Part shown: positions 26,352 to 49,436 of the stretch, one piece after another
Layout: the number at the start of each line of letters is the position of its first letter
How positions within the stretch are numbered: position 1 is the stretch's first letter
NCBI GenBank assembly: GCA_037574385.1
Contig: GCA_037574385.1_4529.1
Source: a phage
Direction: 5' to 3' (one strand)
Length of the DNA: 64,000 nucleotides
The notes under the pieces: generated by a model
What the model was told of the DNA's origin: nothing
Database searches by the model: none
Seen by the model: only the letters and a program-made list of their open reading frames with translations
Position numbers and translations under genes: made by a program

Positions 26352-26900
26352 TTAACGAGCCCATTTGATAATTTCTGTAATCAAATTATTACGTTCGCTT
26401 GCATTAAATCCTATAACTTTGTTAGCACCATCATGATTAAGTAATTGATACGTTTGGATTTTGTTATGAATTGCAAACTCTTCAAAATGTGAAATGACTG
26501 TATTAAAACCGAATGAAGACAAAGTAATAAGGTCGTCTTCAAAACTTTCAGTCATTTCGTTACGTGTTAAAATAATTGTGAACACATCATGGTTTTGGCA
26601 AAGACGAATATAATCCTGTTCATAAACGTCAAGAACCGAGTCCGCATCTTGTCGAATACGTCCATAAACCCAGTTACTAATATATCCACGGTCTAATAGA
26701 TAAATCTTAGTAGGGTCTAAATAATTCAACATCGTTTCGAAACAGCCAACTTCATTTCGAGACTTAACATCGAAACGCCCATCAACTGTTCGTTTAGGGA
26801 AATCAATCTTTACATATCTTTCACTAATTTCCATTATGTCATTAATGAAAGTTGTTTTACCAGCATTATCCGGTCCGTCTACTAAAATAATTTTAGCCAT
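26352..26900 (-). CDS. P-loop nucleotide kinase (thymidylate/dNMP kinase-like)
   Basis: 182 aa; Walker A VDGPDNAGKTT and DRGYIS lid-like motif; at the T4 beta-gt locus between uvsX and 42. Confidence 0.6.
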   Translation of the reverse strand: MAKIILVDGPDNAGKTTFINDIMEISERYVKIDFPKRTVDGRFDVKSRNEVGCFETMLNYLDPTKIYLLDRGYISNWVYGRIRQDADSVLDVYEQDYIRLCQNHDVFTIILTRNEMTESFEDDLITLSSFGFNTVISHFEEFAIHNKIQTYQLLNHDGANKVIGFNASERNNLITEIIKWAR

Positions 26901-26901
26901 T

Positions 26902-27801
26902 TTATTCCTCGATTACGACATCTTCGTATTTAGGTATATTATACGGTGAAGAAATTAAAGCATTAAAGTAGATGAACTCACCAAGACCTGGATGGAATAC
27001 TTCTTCAGGATTTTCGAAATATTGAATCTTCGGACGTCCTTTAAGAATTTGATAGTACTCAGTTTTAGTTGGTTTAAAAATTCGAATCAGCGCTTCTTCA
27101 GGGTACTTATTTCTGTCGAAGCTAATATTTGGATCTGTTATATAAAGCGGTTGGCCTAATTGAATTGCACATTCAACCACTTGTTCAAAACGATAGCACG
27201 GGTCACTAATTCGAAATGGATGAAAAATACCATCTAGATGAATAGGAGCCAAATCACCTACAAGACGCTGCATGATGGAAGGACGTATAACTTTCTGCGT
27301 TACGATAATCTTATTACCATCTGCACCTGCGTTAACCAGCACTTCCTTTTGACGTTCATTCAACACAGTAGTTTGAAGTGAACGATTAACCGACAACATA
27401 TCGGTTTTTAAGAATTCATCAATATAAAAGCGTGGTTTATTAGGGTCTGTAGTGATATTGAAATTGAATTCCACATCAAAAGCGCCATCATATCCAGTGA
27501 TATCTGTGATTAGAAAATCACAATCATAATAAGCAATTAATGAATCAACCACAAATTCATTTTCAGACCAGAAATATTTACGAGTGTTATACGCGTTATC
27601 TTTATACCATAATGGAACAAACTTAAATTCCGGGAAAAGACGTTCACATTCTTTAATATCAGATGCATTACGTGGATATGTAATCACATCACCCGGATTA
27701 GCACGGTGCAAATGAAGTTGGAAGTTGCCATCCTTAAGGATAGCATACTGTCCAGTTTCATAAGACCGCATACTCAAGATTGGTACGCGGAAAATAGCCA
27801 T
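26902..27801 (-). CDS. hypothetical protein (299 aa) at beta-glucosyltransferase locus; candidate DNA-modification enzyme
   Basis: Translationally coupled to gene 42; no similarity to recalled T4 beta-gt; function by synteny only. Confidence 0.55.
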   Translation of the reverse strand: MAIFRVPILSMRSYETGQYAILKDGNFQLHLHRANPGDVITYPRNASDIKECERLFPEFKFVPLWYKDNAYNTRKYFWSENEFVVDSLIAYYDCDFLITDITGYDGAFDVEFNFNITTDPNKPRFYIDEFLKTDMLSVNRSLQTTVLNERQKEVLVNAGADGNKIIVTQKVIRPSIMQRLVGDLAPIHLDGIFHPFRISDPCYRFEQVVECAIQLGQPLYITDPNISFDRNKYPEEALIRIFKPTKTEYYQILKGRPKIQYFENPEEVFHPGLGEFIYFNALISSPYNIPKYEDVVIEE

Positions 27802-28517
27802 TAGTCAAGGAATCCTTTAACATAATCAAAATCACGTTCAAACACATGGGCACTTACCATGGTATGAGTATAATCACCAACTTCTACACCGCATTCGTTA
27901 GCGATATAATGAAGTAATTTTCCTTGGAGATAAAAATCCAACTGCATAACAACAGCACAGTTCTGAGAACGCATATGGCAGTGCGTATAAAGCTTACCAT
28001 CACGAATATAATAAGTAACTGAGTCAGTACATGGATATTCAAGCGTTTCGTCTGAATCAAGCAAAGCCTGATCAGAACTTTCTAGAATTTGGAACACAAC
28101 TCTTCGGGAGTTAGGCTTCTCTTTAAGTTCTTTTAGAAGAGCTGGTAATTGGGCCGCAATGCGAGGACCATAGAAAGTGTTGAAGTTCGCCGGCAAAACA
28201 TCTGATTTTGGTTTAGAAATAAATTTAGCGACATTAGGATATGCCTTAAACGCTTCTTCTGCGTTGGTACCACCAGAAATCATAAACTTCCAGAAGTCTT
28301 CGGCATATTCATAAGAGATGCGGTTAATACGTGGGTCGGTCATTTTGAATGATGATGGAGTGTCAACAACTACTGTCATAGACCCAATTTCATTACAACG
28401 TCCAATACGAGAATCAGTTACGAATTCCGGGTTTTCTAAAATTTCACGATTGACTGCTTTAAATGCGGTTTGAAAATCTGCGGCTTTGATATATTTCATT
28501 GTGTTATGTTTTCCCAT
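27801..28517 (-). CDS. 42: deoxycytidylate 5-hydroxymethyltransferase (thymidylate synthase fold)
   Basis: 238 aa; RRVVFQI...YPCTDSVTYYIRDGKLYTHCHMRSQN parallels T4 gp42 catalytic region; position between uvsX and 43. Confidence 0.8.
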   Translation of the reverse strand: MGKHNTMKYIKAADFQTAFKAVNREILENPEFVTDSRIGRCNEIGSMTVVVDTPSSFKMTDPRINRISYEYAEDFWKFMISGGTNAEEAFKAYPNVAKFISKPKSDVLPANFNTFYGPRIAAQLPALLKELKEKPNSRRVVFQILESSDQALLDSDETLEYPCTDSVTYYIRDGKLYTHCHMRSQNCAVVMQLDFYLQGKLLHYIANECGVEVGDYTHTMVSAHVFERDFDYVKGFLD

Positions 28518-28536: not shown

Positions 28537-28559
28537 ATTATATACTCAATTCGTAAAGC
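28537..28559 (-). promoter_or_regulatory. possible middle-type promoter for gene 42 (imperfect MotA box GCTTTA, 11-nt spacer, TATAAT)
   Basis: Minus strand AAGCTTTACGAATTGAGTATATAAT. Confidence 0.3.
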
Positions 28560-28799
28560 TTATTTGAATTTCTTGACAATGTTGATATAACGTAAAGCTT
28601 CAGCATCGATACTTCCAAGGACACTATGAAGAAATGCATCAGCGTAGTATTCCAATTGAATAGGTTCTTTAATCACTTTAGCCGCTTTGGTTTCAAACAG
28701 GCCCATCAGGGCCTTTTTAAGAATTTGTTCGTTGCTGTTAATTTTCGTAGTCAAAATCTCTTCATTAAGTTGGTGGTTAAAAGTTTTTCTAGAAATCAT
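28560..28799 (-). CDS. hypothetical protein (79 aa)
   Basis: ATGA-coupled to upstream gene. Confidence 0.45.
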   Translation of the reverse strand: MISRKTFNHQLNEEILTTKINSNEQILKKALMGLFETKAAKVIKEPIQLEYYADAFLHSVLGSIDAEALRYINIVKKFK

Positions 28800-29956
28800 T
28801 CCGGGTACCTCAAAGCGTCATCAGAGTTAGTTATATCAATAATAGATATAGAGTTTTCTGCTAACCCATTTTTAGATAATTGACGTTTATAATATCTTTC
28901 ACAATATGTACACGTTGACCCACAGATTTCATTAGCACAATCAAAATCAGGATGTCTGAACCACCTTTTTTCTAAAAAGCCATCTAACAAAGAGGTTTCA
29001 ATATTTACTGTATGTGAAAACTCAGTCTCATTTTCAAGAGTGAAAATAGTCTCTAAAGGCTTCCACAGTTCTAACAAATTACCTTCAAACTTTTCAGAAG
29101 CGTATGCTTCAAGAACTTTCAAAATGTAGTCTGTGCTACCTGTACGTCCTGAAACTTTGAATTGAGTGATACCAATATCATTATAAAGTTTCAAATCTTG
29201 AGGACGAACAAAACGAGTTCTCAACCAGTTAAATGGGTCTGTATCACGAGCTTTAATACAGTGCTGCATTGGATATCCATTTAAGGATTTAGCATCATCA
29301 GCTGTAACATCAGTACTATGGAAAATATAGCAAGAGTCACGATAGCTACAATGTGTTGTATACCCTTTACCAGCATTAGAACAGAACTCATTTACAAGAA
29401 CTTCAAATATTATATTGTTCTTATTGCAAAACTCTGCTGCACGCTTCAGGAAAGAAACTGAACGGTTCTTATGAATTCCACAGCAGACCTTTTTGATATT
29501 ATATTGGTCATGCAAGTATTTGATTTGAGTTACGGCATCGACATGTAGAATTGTTGAAACTTCAATCTCAATATCTTTATTGACTTCACGAACAATTTCC
29601 ATAACAACAGGGTTAGCGATAGTAATACGCCATACGCCTATTGACCAAAGATACTGAACATAATCCTGAATAGCTTTCTTCTTCCACTCAACTAGTTCTC
29701 TTTTTGAACCAGGATTTATCGTGTTGAGTGTATAGTTAAAGCAAATACCTAATTCGTTACAACGTTTAACGTAGTCTTCTAACATCTTTTTGTCAACGTC
29801 AGGAAGCCTAAAATCAGGTCTGGCTGCTACAAAAGCCATTTCTCTTGTAGAGCCATATACTTCGTTTATCAAGCTATTAGGATAGGTTTTATTGAGCTCT
29901 ACGATTTTATCAAGAAGAGCTAAATCAAAATTCGTTCCGATTTTAAAAGTATTCAT
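28796..29956 (-). CDS. Cys-rich putative Fe-S protein (386 aa), unknown function
   Basis: Track ORF (GTG) trimmed to first ATG; Cys cluster VCCG...EFC...EFCSNAGKGYTTHCSYRDSC and C-terminal CGSTCTYC (CX3CX2C). Confidence 0.55.
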   Translation of the reverse strand: MNTFKIGTNFDLALLDKIVELNKTYPNSLINEVYGSTREMAFVAARPDFRLPDVDKKMLEDYVKRCNELGICFNYTLNTINPGSKRELVEWKKKAIQDYVQYLWSIGVWRITIANPVVMEIVREVNKDIEIEVSTILHVDAVTQIKYLHDQYNIKKVCCGIHKNRSVSFLKRAAEFCNKNNIIFEVLVNEFCSNAGKGYTTHCSYRDSCYIFHSTDVTADDAKSLNGYPMQHCIKARDTDPFNWLRTRFVRPQDLKLYNDIGITQFKVSGRTGSTDYILKVLEAYASEKFEGNLLELWKPLETIFTLENETEFSHTVNIETSLLDGFLEKRWFRHPDFDCANEICGSTCTYCERYYKRQLSKNGLAENSISIIDITNSDDALRYPE

Positions 29957-30012
29957 TTTTTTGCATCTCACGTTAATTGATGCGATGGTTTTTGCAGGTC
30001 TTACTTAAATTA

Positions 30013-30399
30013 TTATAGATTCGGTTTATATGATTTAAATGTTTCGAATTCGCCTTTATTCATAAGAGCTTTGAATTCGTCAGGACGCATAGCTTTGTCG
30101 TCGATAATCCAATCATATACTGGTTTATGTGTTAGCAAATTATGGTACTTCAAGCCAATGTTTGCCAAGTTCTGAATCAGACTTGGGAGAATGTCAATTG
30201 CTATACGTCCAGGACCTACTGACTTCATACCACGAGCAGTGTAAAGCGTTATGGTATGCCCTGCATCATACAGGGCATTAATGGCAGACACCATTTCGAC
30301 GTCTGGTTTGAAGTTCACGTAATCGCGATTGTTATTCCATTCTGTGATGCAATCATCGACATCAAAACAAAGATTAAGCATGTTTTCTACACGGTGCAT
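30013..30399 (-). CDS. HAD-superfamily phosphatase (small; start uncertain)
   Basis: N-terminal LCFDVDDCIT (HAD motif I-like), LYTARG, YDWIIDDKA; chosen ATG overlaps upstream stop (TAATG); alternative ATGs at 30414 and 30381. Confidence 0.55.
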   Translation of the reverse strand: MHRVENMLNLCFDVDDCITEWNNNRDYVNFKPDVEMVSAINALYDAGHTITLYTARGMKSVGPGRIAIDILPSLIQNLANIGLKYHNLLTHKPVYDWIIDDKAMRPDEFKALMNKGEFETFKSYKPNL

Positions 30400-32084
30400 T
30401 AGATTTGTTCCCATTGATGAGTGATATCGCCACCGATTGGACGATAAGAAACACCAGTTTCTTTATCAGTTAGTACCCATTTACCAGGATTTTTTGTAAT
30501 CAGAGTAGCCGTTACAGGTTCTGCTACGTCATAACTAATAGAGCCGTCTTGAAGTACACGGCCCATGTTACGTAATTGCTTAGTTAGAAGTTCCATACCT
30601 TTATAATATGCGGCTACCGCTTTAAGTGGATTATTCTTGAAATAACCACCTAATGCAATCCAGATAATTGCCACTGCCAAATGATGATACTCGTTAAACG
30701 AACTCATCTTTCCATATTTGTAAACTAATGGATTGATGTTAATAGTCACATTACAAGTTGTTTCATCAATAATAAACTGGCCCCAGGTCGGATTAGCGTT
30801 GAATTCATCATAACCTGAAACAGCATAAAGCACTTTAGCTTCATCATACAATTTTGGCCCGTAAATCTTGGTTTCACCAAAATATCCACGAGGGTCGATA
30901 AACTTGACTTCGCCGTTATCAGTAATCATAGTATTACTGAAGTTCGGGTCACCGTGAATAACAGAGTACTGTCCCTGAGAACGGTTATGATAACGAATAA
31001 GGTGTTCTAAAGCTTGTTTCAGCATTGGCTTCAGACGTCCAATCTTAGTGTAGTTCACGTGTGTGATTTTACCAAATGAATCAATCAATGGCTGAATGCT
31101 TTCACAACGATCAATAACTTTCGTATAGAACTCTTTAGTGAAATCACGACGAACAGTTTCAGGACTTACAAAATAAATGTCTGTGTTAAATTTCAGTGCA
31201 TCTAAAATTGCATCAATAATTTGTGGACGAGCAAGACTTGATTTGGATTTAATATATTCAAATGCTGGCTTACCTTTAATGCGTTCCATTTCAAAGTTAT
31301 TTTCATTAACAGAAACTAACTGAGGAACTGAATCTGATTTCACTTTCAAATACCATGAAATCTCATCTTTTTGAAGAGCTCGACCTTGTTCAGTTAATGC
31401 GAATTTAGTTACAGTTTCTTCACCAATTTCAACCGCATTAAAACTACGATTAAGTTCACGAACTTCATGAGCTTTTTCAAGTTTAGGCATATCACCAAGG
31501 TCGATGATATTCATAAGCTCTGATTTATTGAATGCGCCGCTGTAAAGGAATTCTACAAAATCACGTCCTTTGCAGTATTCGTGAATTTCCTCATCAGTAG
31601 AACCCATGTAGAATTCCCAGTCTTTGAACTGATAAATTCCTACAACATTACCGCCTGTTGCACCTACATTAGTGATATTTTCACCATCGAAATTATATCG
31701 ACATTCATCACCTTTAACATAGATTGCGTTAACATTCCAAGACCATGAACCAAAATCAGGAATAATATCACACCAGTTAACAACTACGTTATGGCCGTCT
31801 AAATCTTTGTGTAATTTAGCAAGAGCATAAGCAGAACCATACGCTTCATCAACTGTACGAATAGTCACATTGAACCCTTCTTGCTCACAATAAGCTCGAA
31901 CAGTTTCAGCAAATTTTGAATGAACTACTACAATAATTTCATCTGCGCCAAGGTCAGAATAAATTGTATACAAATTGCTCAGAATAGTGTCTTGTTTATA
32001 GTTCACAAGAACTTTTGGAATATGGTGAGTAATTGGATATAAACGAGTTGCCAATCCAGCACCAAGAATAACAGCTTTTTTCAT
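30399..32084 (-). CDS. bifunctional sugar-1-phosphate nucleotidyltransferase / APH-type sugar kinase
   Basis: 561 aa; N-terminus ILGAGLATRLYPIT (RmlA/GlmU-type G-x-G-T-R-L-x-P-x-T); C-terminal VIHGDPNFSNTMI and IDPRGYFG (APH/choline-kinase catalytic loop). Confidence 0.7.
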   Translation of the reverse strand: MKKAVILGAGLATRLYPITHHIPKVLVNYKQDTILSNLYTIYSDLGADEIIVVVHSKFAETVRAYCEQEGFNVTIRTVDEAYGSAYALAKLHKDLDGHNVVVNWCDIIPDFGSWSWNVNAIYVKGDECRYNFDGENITNVGATGGNVVGIYQFKDWEFYMGSTDEEIHEYCKGRDFVEFLYSGAFNKSELMNIIDLGDMPKLEKAHEVRELNRSFNAVEIGEETVTKFALTEQGRALQKDEISWYLKVKSDSVPQLVSVNENNFEMERIKGKPAFEYIKSKSSLARPQIIDAILDALKFNTDIYFVSPETVRRDFTKEFYTKVIDRCESIQPLIDSFGKITHVNYTKIGRLKPMLKQALEHLIRYHNRSQGQYSVIHGDPNFSNTMITDNGEVKFIDPRGYFGETKIYGPKLYDEAKVLYAVSGYDEFNANPTWGQFIIDETTCNVTININPLVYKYGKMSSFNEYHHLAVAIIWIALGGYFKNNPLKAVAAYYKGMELLTKQLRNMGRVLQDGSISYDVAEPVTATLITKNPGKWVLTDKETGVSYRPIGGDITHQWEQI

Positions 32085-32112
32085 GTTGAAGTCCTCATTG
32101 GTAAGTAGGTGT

Positions 32113-32139
32113 ATTGTACACTATTCTAGTTAAAGCATT
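32113..32139 (-). promoter_or_regulatory. middle-type promoter (MotA box ATGCTTTA, 12-nt spacer, TACAAT) upstream of the nucleotidyltransferase/kinase gene
   Basis: Minus strand ATGCTTTAACTAGAATAGTGTACAAT, 25-30 nt upstream of ATG at 32084. Confidence 0.4.
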
Positions 32140-32269
32140 CATACTTTGCCTGTAGACCAATCATAATCCATCCAATTACAAGTGTTGGAATCATTACTGG
32201 AGCCGTTAAGCTCCAGTAGATAGTCATGACAAGCATCAATAGTAAAAGTCCTATTGTTATTGCTTTCAT
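32126..32269 (-). CDS. small hydrophobic peptide (47 aa)
   Basis: Not in track; ATG overlaps the stop of the SIS gene (ATGA); predicted membrane helices. Confidence 0.35.
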   Translation of the reverse strand: MKAITIGLLLLMLVMTIYWSLTAPVMIPTLVIGWIMIGLQAKYECFN

Positions 32270-32901
32270 TGTTCGCCTCGTAACATGGCACCTAGTGCAC
32301 CGCCAGGGTGGAACTTAAGGAAATCATTAGAGGTAAATCCGCGTTCAGACGAAAGGTTGATAGCGAACGTATCGATAAGCGCTAACAACAATGTAGTGGA
32401 CATAGTCGGAGCTAAAGAGTTCTCGTCAACTTCTACCGCGATACCGGTACAGAATGTATAATCAAAAAGAGCTTCGTATTCTTGTGGAATGTCAGGGTTA
32501 CAATGTAACAGAATCTGTTTAACCTGAGGACGAATCATACGAAGATGTTTAGCAACACCTATCATTTCTTCAGTCTTACCAGAACGACTGATGTGAACTA
32601 ATACATCATTAGGTGCAATGAATCCTGCATCACCGTGAGAATAATGCCCAGTGTTCAAATACATGCTAGGAATACCTAGTGAAGCAAAAGTCTCGGAAGC
32701 TTTAGTTGCGATATTAGCGTTCTTACCAACACCTGTAATAATTACACGACTTTCATAATTACTCAGTCCTGGGCGTCGAAGAGTTTCTAGAATAGCATTA
32801 TAACGAGCAGGGTTTTGACTAATTACTTTGGCCATAGCGGCCAAAGAAGAAGCTTGTTTTATGATTGCGTCAATAGCGATAGTGATTGGTGTAGTTTTCA
32901 T
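32266..32901 (-). CDS. SIS-domain sugar-phosphate isomerase (KdsD/GutQ-like arabinose-5-phosphate isomerase, no CBS domains)
   Basis: 211 aa; ITGVGKNANIATKASETFASLGIPS, ISRSGKTEE, LAPTMSTT, FHPGGALG match KdsD SIS-domain motifs. Confidence 0.7.
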   Translation of the reverse strand: MKTTPITIAIDAIIKQASSLAAMAKVISQNPARYNAILETLRRPGLSNYESRVIITGVGKNANIATKASETFASLGIPSMYLNTGHYSHGDAGFIAPNDVLVHISRSGKTEEMIGVAKHLRMIRPQVKQILLHCNPDIPQEYEALFDYTFCTGIAVEVDENSLAPTMSTTLLLALIDTFAINLSSERGFTSNDFLKFHPGGALGAMLRGEQ

Positions 32902-32941: not shown

Positions 32942-35653
32942 TCAAAAATCGAACATATCGAACAGAGATGCTTTCTTCTCGTAATCGAGTTTCGCTGCTG
33001 ATGTGAATCCTTCAAGTGGTTTAATAAATGTCTTCTCAAGGAGAACCGTGTAGTCCATCCAATGAAGTACGTCGTCTTTAATTAAATCTGTGATTTCAGT
33101 ACCAGAAGGCCATGCGATACATTTATCACCGAATGGGTTTCCTTCACGTAAAGGCAGAACATATACTTTTTCACCTTCTACAACTTGTGGTGCATCAATA
33201 TTACCTTTGATAGCCCGGTTATACGTTAGAATTCCACGAATATGGAACGGGCATTTGGGACCCGGGAATCCACCTACATCATATTTAGCAATGTTATTCG
33301 CAGAAGATACCGACGCGATGCTAATATAATTCAATTGACGGAATTCTTTTTCAAACTCTTTAAAATACTCTTGTAATGATTCTTCACCTTCCTGAAGCAT
33401 ACGACGAATACATTCCTTAAGAGCTTTCTGTACCGCTTTAGGAGTTGAAGATTTCTGTGTTTCGAGACCCATGATTTTGAGTTTAGGCTTAGCGTAACGA
33501 GTACCTTCCATATCCCACACGTTTAATGCATAACGTTTCTTACCAGTCCAAAATCCGCCAATACCTTTAGAACCGAGCGGAGGACCAGCGATAGCTTCTC
33601 GGTCCATGAACATCAAATGTTGCTTATTATTCATGTATTCGCACATTTCACGGAAACCTCTATCAATAGCAGGTTCCATACGTTCACGAGCGAACTTATC
33701 TAAGAAGTCTACCCAATGGTTGGTATCACGGAATTTAGATTCACCAACCTTATCAATAATTTTATCTGCAGATACATAAATGGAGTCTGTATCACCGTAT
33801 AGAACGAAAGCTTCACCTTCTGTACCACAAACTTCGTTCAGATATTCATTAACTTTACGTTCAATCCACTGTAAAGCCATTTGCCCGAATGTTGTGATTG
33901 CAGTAGCATTACGCAAATCATAATAACGGAACCAAACGTTGCCAAGTGCACCATAAAGTGAGTTGATAAGCAATTTACGGTTAATCTGTGCAGTCATACC
34001 TGCAACTTCAGTACGTTGAGCTCTAAACAACATTTCATTAAGAGATTTAGCAGACAACTTTTTAATCTTTTCTTTAATCTCGTCAGTGAAGTCGAAACGA
34101 TAATCAACATCTAATGGTTCGTCAACAGAAAGATTAGGATTATGCAATGCCTCTTTAATTATTTCACCATTACGTTGAGCTGCAAGCATGTAACCTTTAT
34201 GTTCTTTACGCTGATTAAAGACCTTAGTGATTTCAGTTGGAACTACACCATCACGGTCTTTATAATACATCATGCCATTAGGAGAGCAACTGTACACATC
34301 TGAAGGACGTTCAGCAACAGCGTTAATATAATCATGTAATGGAGCTACTTTAAACGTTCCTGCTATTGTTTCTGGGCTAATATTCACTTGGCGAATAATA
34401 CTTGGATACAGAGATGTAAGGTCGAAACTCATTACATATTTGTATCGATTTGGAATAGGTTCCTTAACAAAAGCGCCTGGGTAAGGTTGAACCGGGTGAG
34501 AACGACCTTGTGGAATCACCTTGTTCTGCTCTTTAAGGCTATTAAAAATAATAGCATCCCATGTTTTAATTGGGCTAAACACAGATTGAATCTGTATCTT
34601 AGCATAATAACCCATGTCCAAACTCAAGTTGATGAACTGACGCTTAGCATCAATTTGCAATACACGATACACGTCGATAATGTTATAAGAAATATATCGT
34701 TGGTGATTGCTTTCACGAAGCTTAGAAATAGGGCCGTCATATTTCAGTTTACCAACGTTCAATTCAAATTCTGAAATGTAATCCAGAGAATACGACGGTT
34801 GATTGGTAAAAGAGAATTTTTTGTAAAGGTCAATGTAATCAAGAACAGAGATACCGAACAATGTAATGATTTCACGAGAACCATACATGTTTTCGATAAC
34901 TTTAACATGAGTTTTACGATGTGGTGATAAACGTTTCGCAGTAGATTCGCCAAAAATATTCTTGATTCGGTTATACACATATGGAATATCAAATGACTCA
35001 ACGTTCCATCCGGTTAAAATGACAGGAGTTTTCTGTTGCCAGAAGTTGAGATATTCCATCAACAATTCTTTTTCGTTATCGAACGGCATATAAATGATTT
35101 TATCAATAATTTCGGATGGAACTTCATCACCACCTTGTTCTTGAAGCTTAGCAGCGATTTCAATAGACCATTCTTCTACATTACCATATGGAGAATTCAA
35201 TAGATCAAATACGTAAAACCTGTCGTCAATTGAGTCATAATGAGTGATAGCATCAATCGGATGTTTTGCTTGTGACGGCTCAGGGAACCCATCCGGAGAT
35301 GTTACTTCGATGTCGAAGTTAGCCACACGAATTTTTGTATGGTCGTATTTGATTTCATAGTTATAAGTGTCAGACAAATACGCCAATTTGAAATCGTCCA
35401 TGCCAAGTGCTTCAAGTCCGATATCTTCCATGCGTTTAATCCATTGGGAGGCATCACGCATATTAGCGAACAACTTACGAGTACACGACTTACCGTAGAT
35501 ATCGAAATATTTCGTAGCCTGACTTTCTGGACAATGAGCAAACAGTGATGGTTTATATTCTACTTCACGAGTACGTTCACGGCCATTAGAATCGATGTAA
35601 CGTTCAAAAATTGAATCACCGATCTGTTCAACCGTTAAGTAAAATTCTTTCAT
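32942..35653 (-). CDS. 43: DNA polymerase (family B, gp43)
   Basis: 903 aa; exonuclease FDIEVTS and polymerase YGDTDS motifs; length and N-terminus match recalled RB69 gp43. Confidence 0.95.
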   Translation of the reverse strand: MKEFYLTVEQIGDSIFERYIDSNGRERTREVEYKPSLFAHCPESQATKYFDIYGKSCTRKLFANMRDASQWIKRMEDIGLEALGMDDFKLAYLSDTYNYEIKYDHTKIRVANFDIEVTSPDGFPEPSQAKHPIDAITHYDSIDDRFYVFDLLNSPYGNVEEWSIEIAAKLQEQGGDEVPSEIIDKIIYMPFDNEKELLMEYLNFWQQKTPVILTGWNVESFDIPYVYNRIKNIFGESTAKRLSPHRKTHVKVIENMYGSREIITLFGISVLDYIDLYKKFSFTNQPSYSLDYISEFELNVGKLKYDGPISKLRESNHQRYISYNIIDVYRVLQIDAKRQFINLSLDMGYYAKIQIQSVFSPIKTWDAIIFNSLKEQNKVIPQGRSHPVQPYPGAFVKEPIPNRYKYVMSFDLTSLYPSIIRQVNISPETIAGTFKVAPLHDYINAVAERPSDVYSCSPNGMMYYKDRDGVVPTEITKVFNQRKEHKGYMLAAQRNGEIIKEALHNPNLSVDEPLDVDYRFDFTDEIKEKIKKLSAKSLNEMLFRAQRTEVAGMTAQINRKLLINSLYGALGNVWFRYYDLRNATAITTFGQMALQWIERKVNEYLNEVCGTEGEAFVLYGDTDSIYVSADKIIDKVGESKFRDTNHWVDFLDKFARERMEPAIDRGFREMCEYMNNKQHLMFMDREAIAGPPLGSKGIGGFWTGKKRYALNVWDMEGTRYAKPKLKIMGLETQKSSTPKAVQKALKECIRRMLQEGEESLQEYFKEFEKEFRQLNYISIASVSSANNIAKYDVGGFPGPKCPFHIRGILTYNRAIKGNIDAPQVVEGEKVYVLPLREGNPFGDKCIAWPSGTEITDLIKDDVLHWMDYTVLLEKTFIKPLEGFTSAAKLDYEKKASLFDMFDF

Positions 35654-47151: not shown

Positions 47152-47622
47152 TTAATCATGTTTCCACACCCCATCGGTATTTGACCAAAGTCGCTGATTA
47201 TCTGATCCTCGCCACAGCTTTTTAGTCGGAAGATTTTTCTCATACTTCCCATCAATAATAACATCAACATATTTAAGCATTTCTAGCTGTTTAATATCTT
47301 CAAACTTATATCCTGTCCACAACCAAATGCTTTTATTGGGATAAAGATTTTTAATAGTTTGAACCACAGAGTGAATAACATCTCGGTTATCAGGATAGAG
47401 AGGGTCGCCTCCAGTTATAGTCAATCCTTCTATATAATCATTATTCAAACATTGAATTAATTGTTCTAGTGTTTCACCAGTGAATGGAGCACCATTTCTA
47501 GCATTCCATGTTGATTTATTATAACACCCTTCGCATTTATGCAAACAACCTGTAACGAAAAGAACGACCCTACAACCAGGGCCATTAACAAAATCGCAAG
47601 GATAAAATCTATCATAATTCAT
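47152..47622 (-). CDS. nrdG: anaerobic ribonucleotide reductase activating protein (radical SAM)
   Basis: 156 aa; CLHKCEGC (CX3CX2C) radical-SAM motif; ATGA-coupled to nrdD. Confidence 0.88.
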   Translation of the reverse strand: MNYDRFYPCDFVNGPGCRVVLFVTGCLHKCEGCYNKSTWNARNGAPFTGETLEQLIQCLNNDYIEGLTITGGDPLYPDNRDVIHSVVQTIKNLYPNKSIWLWTGYKFEDIKQLEMLKYVDVIIDGKYEKNLPTKKLWRGSDNQRLWSNTDGVWKHD

Positions 47623-49436
47623 TGGTGTTTAACCCTATGCATGATTTCTTTATTTTTACCGAGATTAAATCCGCGTTCGTTCGGATTTCCCAAATAACCG
47701 CACGTTCTTCTTATTGTGTTCATCTTTTTAGGATCAGTTTCTCCGCAAACTGAACAAACAAATCCGTTTTCAGTAGGAGTCATTTCATGGGTACTTCCGC
47801 ATGTAAAACATTTATCCACTGGCATATTAACACCAAAATAATCTAAATGTTGTGCAGCATAATCCCAGACGGCCTCAAGTCCTTTTAAGTTATTTTTCAT
47901 ATCAGGAAGTTCAACATAAGAAATGTGACCACCTGTCGCAATGAAATGATATGGCGCTTCACGAGAAATCTTTTCAAACGGAGTAATATTTTCTTCTACT
48001 GAAACGTGGAAACTATTAGTGTACCAGCCTTTATCGGTAACATCTTTTACACTTCCGTATTTTTCTGTATCAAGTTTACAGAAGCGATAACAAAGGTTTT
48101 CAGCAGGAGTCGAATATAAACTAAAAGCAAATCCAGTTCTTTCAGTCCACTGTTTAAGATGAGCATTCATTTTAGTTAAAATTTCTTGCCCAATATCACG
48201 ACCGACAAGAATATTCAATTCGTGAATACCAATGTATCCCAAAGACACTGAACTTCTACCGTTTTTAAATAACTCAATTATGTCGTCATCAGGTTTAAGA
48301 CGAACACCGAATGCACCTTCTTGGTAAAGAATAGGAGCAACAGTCGCTTTAACTCCTTTTAAGGAACTAATTCTACACATCAAGGCTTCAAAACACAGAT
48401 CCATTCGTTCATTGAATAATTCAACAAATTTCTGTTCATTGAACTGTGTTCCAATATAAGAATCTAATGCGATACGAGGAAGATTCAGCGTTACAACACC
48501 TAGATTATTACGCCCATCAAGAATTTCATTACCGGTTGAATCTTTCCACACACTCAAGAAACTACGGCAACCCATTGGAGAAACTGGAACTGAAGAACCG
48601 GTAATAACTTTGTTATTCTTAACCGAAATGATGTCAGGATACATTCTTTTGCTTGCACATTCTAAAGCAAGCTGCTTAATATCATAGTTCGGGTCGTCTT
48701 TATAAAGATTAACACCTTCTTCAATGAACATAACAAGTTTAGGGAAAATAGGAGTTATCCCATCACGTCCAAGACCTTTAATCCGATTTTTCAGAATTGC
48801 TTTCTGAATCATTCGTTCAGTCCAATCGGTTCCCATGCCAAATGTAATTGTTACAAAAGGCGTTTGTCCATTTGAACTAAAGAGAGTATTTACTTCATAT
48901 TCATAAGCTTGGAATGCATCGTATACGTCTTTTTCTGTTTTAGATTGAGCATAATTCAACGCATCAGCGATTTGCCATTTTTCTGCATCTTCAACATGTT
49001 TAGCGTATGTGCGTTTAACATAAGGAGAAAGAACTTTATCGACATTCGCAAATGTAGTTCCGCCATACTGATGTGAAGCAACTTGTGCGGTAATTTGTGC
49101 CATAATTGCAGTAGCAACACCAATTGATTTAGGCGTTTCAATTTGAGCATTGCCTAATTTAAATCCATTCTCAAGCATCCCCTTTAAATCGACTAAACAG
49201 CAATTAGTAAATGGAAGAGCAGGAGAATAATCAATATCATGCATGTGGATAATTCCACTTTCATGCGCATTCATAATAAAAGACGGGACCATATTTTTGG
49301 CAATGTGCTTAGACACAATACCAGCCATAAGGTCCCGTTGAGTTGGAAAAACACGAGAATCTTTATTAGCATTCTCGTTCAAAAGATCTTTATTAGTTTT
49401 ATGAATTAATCCTTCAATTTCTTTTTCAATTTTCAT
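47619..49436 (-). CDS. nrdD: anaerobic ribonucleoside-triphosphate reductase (glycyl radical enzyme), uninterrupted
   Basis: 605 aa; C-terminal zinc ribbon CFTCGS...CSVCG and glycyl-radical motif RRTCGYLG. Confidence 0.9.
   Translation of the reverse strand: MKIEKEIEGLIHKTNKDLLNENANKDSRVFPTQRDLMAGIVSKHIAKNMVPSFIMNAHESGIIHMHDIDYSPALPFTNCCLVDLKGMLENGFKLGNAQIETPKSIGVATAIMAQITAQVASHQYGGTTFANVDKVLSPYVKRTYAKHVEDAEKWQIADALNYAQSKTEKDVYDAFQAYEYEVNTLFSSNGQTPFVTITFGMGTDWTERMIQKAILKNRIKGLGRDGITPIFPKLVMFIEEGVNLYKDDPNYDIKQLALECASKRMYPDIISVKNNKVITGSSVPVSPMGCRSFLSVWKDSTGNEILDGRNNLGVVTLNLPRIALDSYIGTQFNEQKFVELFNERMDLCFEALMCRISSLKGVKATVAPILYQEGAFGVRLKPDDDIIELFKNGRSSVSLGYIGIHELNILVGRDIGQEILTKMNAHLKQWTERTGFAFSLYSTPAENLCYRFCKLDTEKYGSVKDVTDKGWYTNSFHVSVEENITPFEKISREAPYHFIATGGHISYVELPDMKNNLKGLEAVWDYAAQHLDYFGVNMPVDKCFTCGSTHEMTPTENGFVCSVCGETDPKKMNTIRRTCGYLGNPNERGFNLGKNKEIMHRVKHQ

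Follow-up and report, generated by a model that had tools for sequence, protein, structure and literature searches.

The window analyzed here is a 64,000-nucleotide (nt) stretch of phage DNA (NCBI GenBank assembly GCA_037574385.1, contig GCA_037574385.1_4529.1), and our subject is the cassette of genes that it carries at positions 28560 to 32901. Six open reading frames (ORFs), all on the minus strand, were called in the gap between a gene resembling thymidylate synthase (ThyA) and the gene for DNA polymerase gp43 (Table 1), and a translation check showed that the limits of the cassette are exact ORF boundaries. The initial annotation of this DNA had counted five extra genes at the site; we found six, four of which encode enzymes. 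The motifs ETFASLGIPS, ISRSGK, HPGGALG, FDVDDC, GAGLATRLYPIT and HGDPNFSN were all confirmed in the translations.

The window belongs to an RB69-like Mosigvirus, one of the T4-like phages, and its gp43 and all of its module proteins are 95-100% identical to those of RB69. The genes and their order are those of RB69 gp45-gp55 and of the Afh cluster of HY126, and there is no essential difference between the clusters. Two genes that are split by sequencing errors in the RB69 GenBank record are intact in the window, encoding proteins of 561 and 299 amino acids (aa). The cassette is very probably the sugar-activation half of the published arabinosyl-5-hydroxycytosine DNA module of RB69-type phages. 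As such it is already known and has been partly characterized biochemically; the remaining novelty is the U32-family protein.

Table 1. Genes of the cassette, its flanks and functionally related genes in the window, with their counterparts in phage RB69.
Feature	Position	Strand	RB69 equivalent	Remarks
gp43 DNA polymerase	32942-35653	minus		flanks cassette
SIS isomerase, 211 aa	32266-32901	minus	gp55	
Hydrophobic (membrane) ORF, 47 aa	32126-32269	minus	ORF054c	
Nucleotidyltransferase and kinase fusion, 561 aa	30399-32084	minus	gp52:53	AfhE-type
HAD phosphatase, 133 aa	30013-30414	minus	gp51	AfhF-type
Cysteine-rich U32-family protein, 391 aa	28796-29971	minus	gp50	
79-aa ORF	28560-28799	minus	ORF049c	
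ThyA-like gene	27801-28517	minus		flanks cassette, other side
GT-B glycosyltransferase, proposed first arabinosyltransferase on 5-hydroxycytosine	26902-27801	minus	gp46:47	PHROG 3891; role proposed in PMC13326640
P-loop thymidylate-kinase-like nucleotide kinase	26352-26900	minus	gp45	PHROG 761 (2.6e-45); 98% identical to RB69p045
Second arabinosyltransferase, as proposed in PMC6024577 and PMC13326640	5355-6455	minus	ORF003c	outside the cassette; 363/366 residues identical to RB69p003

At the DNA level, the 4.3-kb cassette was found in 153 phage records (95-99% identity, at least 80% coverage), mostly of Mosigviruses of Escherichia and Shigella. The fusion gene occurs in 377 phage records, among them those of 57 Acinetobacter phages and of the JS98-type coliphages. 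Public labels mislead for three of these genes, since the HAD phosphatase is entered as "phosphoheptose isomerase" (RefSeq, PHROG 1238), the fusion as "GlmU" or "capsule biosynthesis protein", and the U32 protein as "peptidase/collagenase".

Much of the chemistry has been published. Thomas et al. (2018) found arabinose on RB69 DNA, pointed to the module between the polymerase and uvsX as the likely source of UDP-arabinose, showed that RB69 ORF052c and ORF053c are one 561-aa gene, and took the modified base to be 5-hydroxymethylcytosine (5-hmC) (PMC6024577). Using tandem mass spectrometry (MS/MS) and nuclear magnetic resonance (NMR), Lee et al. (2026) identified the base as 5-hydroxycytosine, to which one or two D-arabinofuranoses are ether-linked at C5 (PMC13326640), and the older 5-hmC assignment has been called erroneous (PMC13390438). 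RB69 gp48, a ThyA homologue with bound flavin, makes 5-hydroxy-dCMP from deoxycytidine monophosphate (dCMP) with oxygen derived from 18O2, and in close relatives the modified nucleotide takes the place of dC in the phage DNA (PMC13326640). According to He et al. (2026), as cited in PMC13326640, the HY126 enzyme AfhE phosphorylates arabinose-5-phosphate to the 1,5-bisphosphate, AfhF takes off the 5-phosphate, and AfhE in turn converts the product to UDP-arabinose. Lee et al. name RB69 gp52:53 as the counterpart of AfhE and gp51 as that of AfhF (PMC13326640). Phage DNA that carries arabinosylated 5-hydroxycytosine is reported to be protected against restriction enzymes, DNA glycosylases and some CRISPR systems.

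The SIS protein of the window matched PF01380 in Pfam (9.6e-10; 38.8 bits against a cut-off of 25) and, in NCBIfam, the models for KpsF/GutQ (TIGR00393, 8.9e-32) and KdsD (3.9e-30). Being shorter, the protein scores under the full-length cut-offs of both NCBIfam models: its matches span positions 47-202 of the 328 in the KdsD profile, and it lacks the C-terminal tandem CBS domains that are carried by E. coli KdsD and GutQ. In having the SIS domain only, it resembles Bacteroides 3etn, for which literature cited in PMC13326640 gives isomerase activity. The closest solved structures are the arabinose-5-phosphate isomerases 3etn, 5uqi and 2xhz, and RB69p055 is 98% identical. No GmhA model appeared among the NCBIfam matches up to E = 0.1, and the KdsD-type assignment made in the initial annotation held. 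We infer that the protein is a D-arabinose-5-phosphate isomerase, converting ribulose-5-phosphate to arabinose-5-phosphate.

In the fusion protein, which is 98% identical to its RB69 counterpart, residues 3-99 matched positions 1-101 of the nucleotidyltransferase profile PF00483 (8.1e-10; 39.1 bits against a cut-off of 21.2), and residues 8-15 (GAGLATRL) contain the nucleotide-binding signature GxGxxR(L). The kinase half has HGDPNFSN, an instance of the motif HxDxxxxN, and sub-threshold matches to fructosamine kinase (0.0035) and EcKL (0.0094); its structural similarity to 3ham is listed in Table 1 of PMC13326640. The APH family PF01636 gave no Pfam match at E <= 0.01. Of the fusion as first described, the nucleotidyltransferase is borne out by PF00483; for the putative APH-type kinase the motif is present, the expected family match is missing and the matches that were obtained are weak. 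From its domain content the protein is predicted to be bifunctional, the C-terminal kinase converting arabinose-5-phosphate to the 1,5-bisphosphate and the N-terminal domain joining arabinose-1-phosphate and UTP into UDP-arabinofuranose.

The HAD protein, 99% identical to RB69 gp51 (RB69p051), has motif I of this superfamily, DxDx(T/V), as FDVDDC at residues 17-22. Its NCBIfam matches, to the capsule-biosynthesis phosphatase model TIGR01689 (4.3e-13) and to HAD-IIIA (0.026), lie under the equivalog cut-offs and hence indicate superfamily membership only. The small HAD phosphatase recognized earlier is confirmed by these matches, although the anticipated HAD family was not found, since Pfam returned no match at 0.01. 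The protein probably removes the 5-phosphate of arabinose-1,5-bisphosphate. The true start of the gene is probably the ATG at 30399, inside the maximal ORF, where it overlaps the fusion stop, as is annotated in RB69.

The ThyA-like protein is 99% identical to RB69 gp48, and 233 of its 238 residues are identical to those of the solved structures 9IQC/9IR2, which we take to be the RB69-type 5-hydroxy-dCMP hydroxylase. Among solved structures the best match was 9IQC, followed by ThyA and MilA, and no T4 gp42 structure occurred among the 60 best matches. Judged by this kinship, the gene, which had been read as the dCMP hydroxymethylase gene 42, is a flavin- and O2-dependent 5-hydroxy-dCMP synthase of the gp48 type and not an orthologue of T4 gp42. 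The GT-B protein (299 aa) is 98% identical to RB69 over residues 1-181, the match being limited to these residues because RB69 splits the gene.

For the sugar pathway in the window we rely on near-identity to the published proteins and on domain content. The SIS enzyme would divert ribulose-5-phosphate to arabinose-5-phosphate, the kinase half of the fusion would phosphorylate C1 of this compound, the HAD enzyme would then cut the 5-phosphate, and the nucleotidyltransferase half would then make UDP-arabinofuranose, which the two arabinosyltransferases listed in Table 1 would use as donor. The initial annotation had proposed that the phage encodes its own supply of NDP-arabinose, from ribulose-5-phosphate by way of arabinose-5-phosphate, for the glycosylation of cytosine, and this matches the RB69 literature (PMC6024577, PMC13326640).

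The phage route follows the ADP-heptose pathway of GmhA, HldE and GmhB in its four-step logic and in the folds used. In both, the order is a SIS isomerase, an anomeric kinase, removal of the distal phosphate by a HAD enzyme, and nucleotidyl transfer, and both HldE and the phage fusion combine kinase and transferase in one polypeptide. The phage route differs in its sugar, a pentose rather than a heptose, and in its nucleotide, which is UDP (as the papers propose) rather than ADP. The phage kinase would have an APH/choline-kinase-like fold, where that of HldE has a ribokinase fold, and the phage SIS protein is of the KdsD type rather than the GmhA type. A second parallel is with the glucosyl-5-hmC of T4, in which a thymidylate synthase homologue likewise modifies C5 of dCMP before replication, GT-B glycosylation follows afterwards, and the genes also lie between gp43 and uvsX. 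T4, however, adds a hydroxymethyl group by folate chemistry and takes UDP-glucose from its host, whereas RB69-type phages add a hydroxyl group with flavin and O2. Their sugar donor is not a host metabolite, so the phage must make it.

Two other explanations of the cassette have to be weighed against the arabinosyl-5-hydroxycytosine module. In the version given by the initial annotation, NDP-arabinose would be made for 5-hmC produced by a T4-type gene 42, with arabinose-5-phosphate first dephosphorylated to free arabinose and then phosphorylated at C1. The enzyme set is compatible with this on paper, the 2018 paper assumed the same base, and Table 1 of PMC13326640 still gives "dephosphorylates Araf5p to Ara" for gp51. 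We nevertheless consider it very unlikely. The base has already been refuted by liquid chromatography with MS/MS and by NMR, which showed an ether link to 5-hydroxycytosine; the ThyA-like protein is nearly identical to an enzyme that makes 5-hydroxy-dCMP; and the order published for HY126, as relayed in PMC13326640, is kinase, phosphatase and then uridylyl transfer. A host-takeover or surface-sugar module, making precursors of 3-deoxy-D-manno-octulosonate (Kdo), heptose or capsule with no role in DNA, would agree with the public labels quoted above, and we find it barely credible. DNA from RB69 and its relatives carries arabinose, and published nucleoside analyses already contradict such a role; the module is always linked to genes for a base hydroxylase, a kinase and a DNA glycosyltransferase; and an NCBIfam profile search of the cassette gave no GmhA or KdsA signature.

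The middle-type promoter proposed for the cassette was recovered as a pattern match. The fusion gene is closely preceded by a well-formed MotA-box/-10 site (aaTGCTTTA-N12-TACAAT; 32137-32113, minus strand), after which come a Shine-Dalgarno sequence, GAGGA, and the fusion ATG; in front of the SIS gene the pattern scan found no MotA box. The pattern TGCTT-N12-16-TANNNT is enriched in the window, with 51 matches where 19 would be expected. Another middle-promoter-like site that is close to the consensus (aGCTTTA, 11 nt, TATAAT) is present at 28540-28565 on the minus strand, in the gap that separates the ThyA-like gene from the 79-aa ORF. A scan for sigma-70 sites is uninformative, since it returned 20 sites and shuffled controls returned 27. 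For the two small ORFs, profile searches gave only phage groups of unassigned function. The 47-aa ORF is 100% identical to that of RB69, falls in PHROG 3610 (function unassigned), and had no match in Pfam. The 79-aa ORF overlaps the U32 stop codon by 4 nt and is poorly conserved or missing in other genera.

The initial annotation had described the remaining enzyme as a cysteine-rich, putative iron-sulfur (Fe-S) protein and had given it no role. The protein belongs to the U32 family (PF01136 Peptidase_U32; 7.4e-11, 42.2 bits against a cut-off of 22.4 in Pfam), and its C214 and C238 align with C176 and C193 of UbiU, which are proven 4Fe-4S ligands (PMC6747719). An AlphaFold2 model (mean predicted local distance difference test score 89.7) folds as a TIM barrel and distantly resembles MetF and glycosidases. 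The best Foldseek match of the model is the U32 protein 5d88, with a TM score of 0.72 on the target; 5d88 was found by fold comparison only, and a sequence search against solved structures gave no match. A search of 5.8 billion proteins revealed a family of proteins of ~360 aa that are 46-58% identical to the window protein. In an alignment of 30 diverse relatives, ten cysteines are invariant, and a C-terminal CX4CX3CX2C is likewise invariant. Comparison with the single E. coli UbiU and UbiV sequences by hhalign gave no meaningful match. Because the homologues begin with MNTFK, the true start of the gene is probably the ATG at 29956, inside the maximal ORF.

Across the Straboviridae, no other protein of the module is as well conserved as U32, which shows 82-89% identity compared with 64-79% for gp43 and 42-73% for the fusion. 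A tblastn search recovered it from 222 phage records at identities of 80% or more, and among the matches listed all hosts are Enterobacterales or Shewanella. In the records searched, the gene is missing from all 57 Acinetobacter records, from DLP3 and from JS98. As the Acinetobacter phages, DLP3 and JS98 arabinosylate their DNA, U32 is dispensable for the activation and transfer of arabinose. The Dhakavirus JS98 (NC_010105.1, 17573-33243; our locus L001) has the module without the SIS isomerase and U32, and its imm gene adjoins gp43; it presumably depends on host KdsD or GutQ for arabinose-5-phosphate. Only eight of about 100,000 species genomes have an RB69-type U32 gene, and these come from the Erysipelotrichales, Bacillota, Lachnospiraceae, Romboutsia (two), BRC1, Tannerella and Phocaeicola. 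The lineages concerned are generally regarded as obligate anaerobes.

Further context was provided by 25 distant viral loci, in which the 140 neighbors within three genes of U32 on either side were classified with Pfam. The families counted were Thymidylate_kin (9), DAHP_synth_1 (6), CM_2, the chorismate mutase family (4), SIS (4), dUTPase (3), dCMP deaminase (3) and NTP_transferase (3). AfhE-like or SIS-like genes lie upstream of U32 in about eleven of the distant loci, and a gp46:47-like glycosyltransferase lies immediately upstream in six. Many loci combine U32 with a glycosyltransferase or a nucleotide kinase and have neither AfhE nor SIS. Other common neighbors are nucleotide kinases, dCMP deaminase, members of the dUTPase/dCTP-deaminase family, deoxynucleoside kinase, 5'-nucleotidase and members of the uracil-DNA-glycosylase family. 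A scan with hidden Markov models found no ThyA-like hydroxylase within 8-10 kb on either side of U32 in the distant loci; the sole ThyA-type match was one canonical thymidylate synthase.

Genes of the shikimate pathway, encoding 3-deoxy-D-arabino-heptulosonate 7-phosphate (DAHP) synthase, a fusion of DAHP synthase with chorismate mutase, or a standalone chorismate mutase, lie one to three genes from U32 on contigs of uncultivated viruses (L040:8411-9433, L042:7302-8357, L044:8332-9387, L008:9145-9891, L028:9384-10130 and L056:13297-13581). Three of the DAHP synthases are fused to chorismate mutase, and the standalone chorismate mutase is in L056. The cluster in L040 contains SIS, AfhE-like, kinase, DAHP synthase-chorismate mutase, HAD and U32 genes together. 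Homologues of these DAHP synthase and chorismate mutase genes are present in only 11 of 50,697 phage records. Chorismate mutase makes prephenate, and these neighbors would link U32 to its supply. The DAHP synthase-like proteins were also considered as Kdo-8-phosphate synthases, which would use arabinose-5-phosphate; this was rejected because the scores for DAHP synthase (1e-36 to 1e-70) are far better than those for Kdo-8-phosphate synthase (1e-7 to 1e-18) and because of the three chorismate mutase fusions.

Two further arrangements were seen among the distant loci. Genomes of anaerobe lineages have in common a conserved four-gene module (L060:6929-11086, L061:7878-11086 and L062:3044-7137, also in L004 and L057) made up of GP88, a fusion of guanylate kinase with an S-adenosylmethionine-dependent methyltransferase (425-443 aa), a protein of ~270 aa, and U32. 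By analogy with the conversion of 5-hydroxyuridine (ho5U) to 5-methoxyuridine (mo5U) in tRNA, this module suggests a route of nucleotide hydroxylation, O-methylation and phosphorylation. In L009:7028-10486 and L036:9025-12512, U32 lies between an ORF of 332-334 aa and a gene resembling TET-associated glycosyltransferases, with a gene of the dUTPase/dCTP-deaminase family next to them. In L009 the 332-334-aa ORF is gp46:47-like by tblastn, and a UDP-galactopyranose mutase is also present. The two loci hint that DNA with hexose-glycosylated 5-hydroxypyrimidines may be made where no ThyA-like enzyme takes part.

The genetically characterized U32 proteins all serve O2-independent hydroxylation of ring carbons, RlhA acting at C5 of cytidine and TrhP at C5 of uridine, with prephenate as the oxygen donor (PMC10990095). 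By analogy with these proteins, and in view of the distribution and neighbors of the gene, we cautiously favor, on balance, a role for the phage U32 protein as a pyrimidine C5 hydroxylase that depends on prephenate and needs no O2, an Fe-S enzyme that would act on a deoxynucleotide and not on a sugar. It would supply 5-hydroxy-dCMP where the O2-dependent enzyme fails, for example in the anoxic gut. RB69-type phages, whose hosts are facultative anaerobes, would own both routes, the flavin- and O2-dependent ThyA-like enzyme and the anaerobic U32 enzyme. In a large set of uncultivated phages of anaerobes U32 would be the sole hydroxylase, and the neighboring chorismate mutase and DAHP synthase would supply the oxygen donor; in phages of the strict aerobe Acinetobacter, the O2-dependent ThyA-like enzyme would be the only one present.

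The window also encodes the anaerobic ribonucleotide reductase proteins NrdG (156 aa) and NrdD (605 aa), at 47152-49436 on the minus strand, so this phage is equipped for O2-free synthesis of deoxynucleoside triphosphates. The proposed pair of hydroxylases would parallel the aerobic and anaerobic ribonucleotide reductases of the phage itself. Similarly, E. coli pairs O2-dependent enzymes with U32 counterparts, as in TrhO/TrhP and UbiIHF/UbiUV. The viral clade has the U32 domain in common with RlhA (23S rRNA ho5C2501), TrhP (tRNA ho5U34) and UbiU-UbiV (ubiquinone); two of its conserved cysteines align with Fe-S ligands of UbiU, and its neighbors suggest a like tie to prephenate. It differs from these proteins in sequence (~20% identity), in the spacing of its cysteines and in the extra C-terminal CX4CX3CX2C, and its proposed substrate is a deoxynucleotide, whereas theirs are RNA or lipid.

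The U32 protein could instead belong to the sugar branch. Table 1 of PMC13326640 calls gp50 a "sugar or heterocycle reductase", a label untested in that paper, and a reductase or epimerase might tailor the pentose before or after its activation. The gene does sit between the sugar genes and the base genes, the TIM barrel is distantly like MetF and glycosidases, and AfhE- or SIS-like genes are nearby in about 11 distant loci. Against this, phages with mono-, di- and tri-arabinosylated DNA (DLP3, JS98 and all of the Acinetobacter records) do without U32, many of the distant loci pair it with a glycosyltransferase or nucleotide kinase in the absence of AfhE and SIS, no reduced or epimerized sugar has been reported for RB69 DNA, and the chorismate mutase neighbors would stay unexplained; we regard a sugar enzyme as improbable. 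We give similarly little credence to a hydroxylase of RNA, acting on U34 of phage or host tRNA or on C2501 of 23S rRNA in a translational takeover. T4-like phages encode tRNAs, and RlhA and TrhP are the closest characterized relatives of the protein, but its constant neighbors are deoxynucleotide enzymes, DNA-base glycosyltransferases and nucleotide kinases rather than tRNA genes or RNA enzymes, and the host already owns both RlhA and TrhP. The discussion in PMC13326640 mentions the RlhA and TrhP routes as unrelated pyrimidine hydroxylations, and the kinship of gp50 to them is unremarked there.

Several observations weigh against a deoxynucleotide hydroxylase. No U32 protein has been shown to hydroxylate in vitro, partly because the known substrates are ribosomes, tRNA and membrane lipids (PMC10990095), and RB69 gp48 alone is enough for 5-hydroxy-dC in aerobic E. 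coli (PMC13326640). The cysteine spacing, CX9CX6CX23C, departs from the family motif CX6CX15CX3/4C, leaving the fourth canonical cysteine unaligned, and RlhA is the nearest of four E. coli U32 proteins only weakly (hhalign probability 81%). JS98-type coliphages from stool lack U32, so gut phages can do without it; a clean split of U32 between the phages of aerobes and anaerobes was for this reason rejected as too strong. The genomic contexts are guilt by association within 8-10 kb on either side, and a ThyA-like gene could lie farther away on the contigs; the hosts of metagenomic contigs were taken from the labels of metagenome-assembled genomes. A human faecal phage contig (L064, MT837090.1) starts with a DAHP synthase-chorismate mutase fusion (6-908) that is 43% identical to that of L044, and the next 10 kb downstream contain no U32, which speaks against a strict linkage of the shikimate genes and U32. 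Our full-text literature searches found no paper linking U32 to phage DNA modification; He 2026 (Nat Chem Biol) and Mahler 2025 (Cell Host Microbe) lay outside their scope and may assign the gene otherwise.

If the proposed role is correct, the phage protein would be the first U32 hydroxylase acting on a DNA precursor, and prephenate-dependent hydroxylation would extend from RNA and quinones to the precursors of DNA. It would account for O2-free replication in phages whose dC is fully replaced, despite the O2 requirement of their known hydroxylase. It would also predict 5-hydroxy-, 5-glycosyloxy- and perhaps 5-methoxypyrimidine DNA in the phages of gut anaerobes, and the enzymology of the U32 family would gain a soluble small-molecule substrate.

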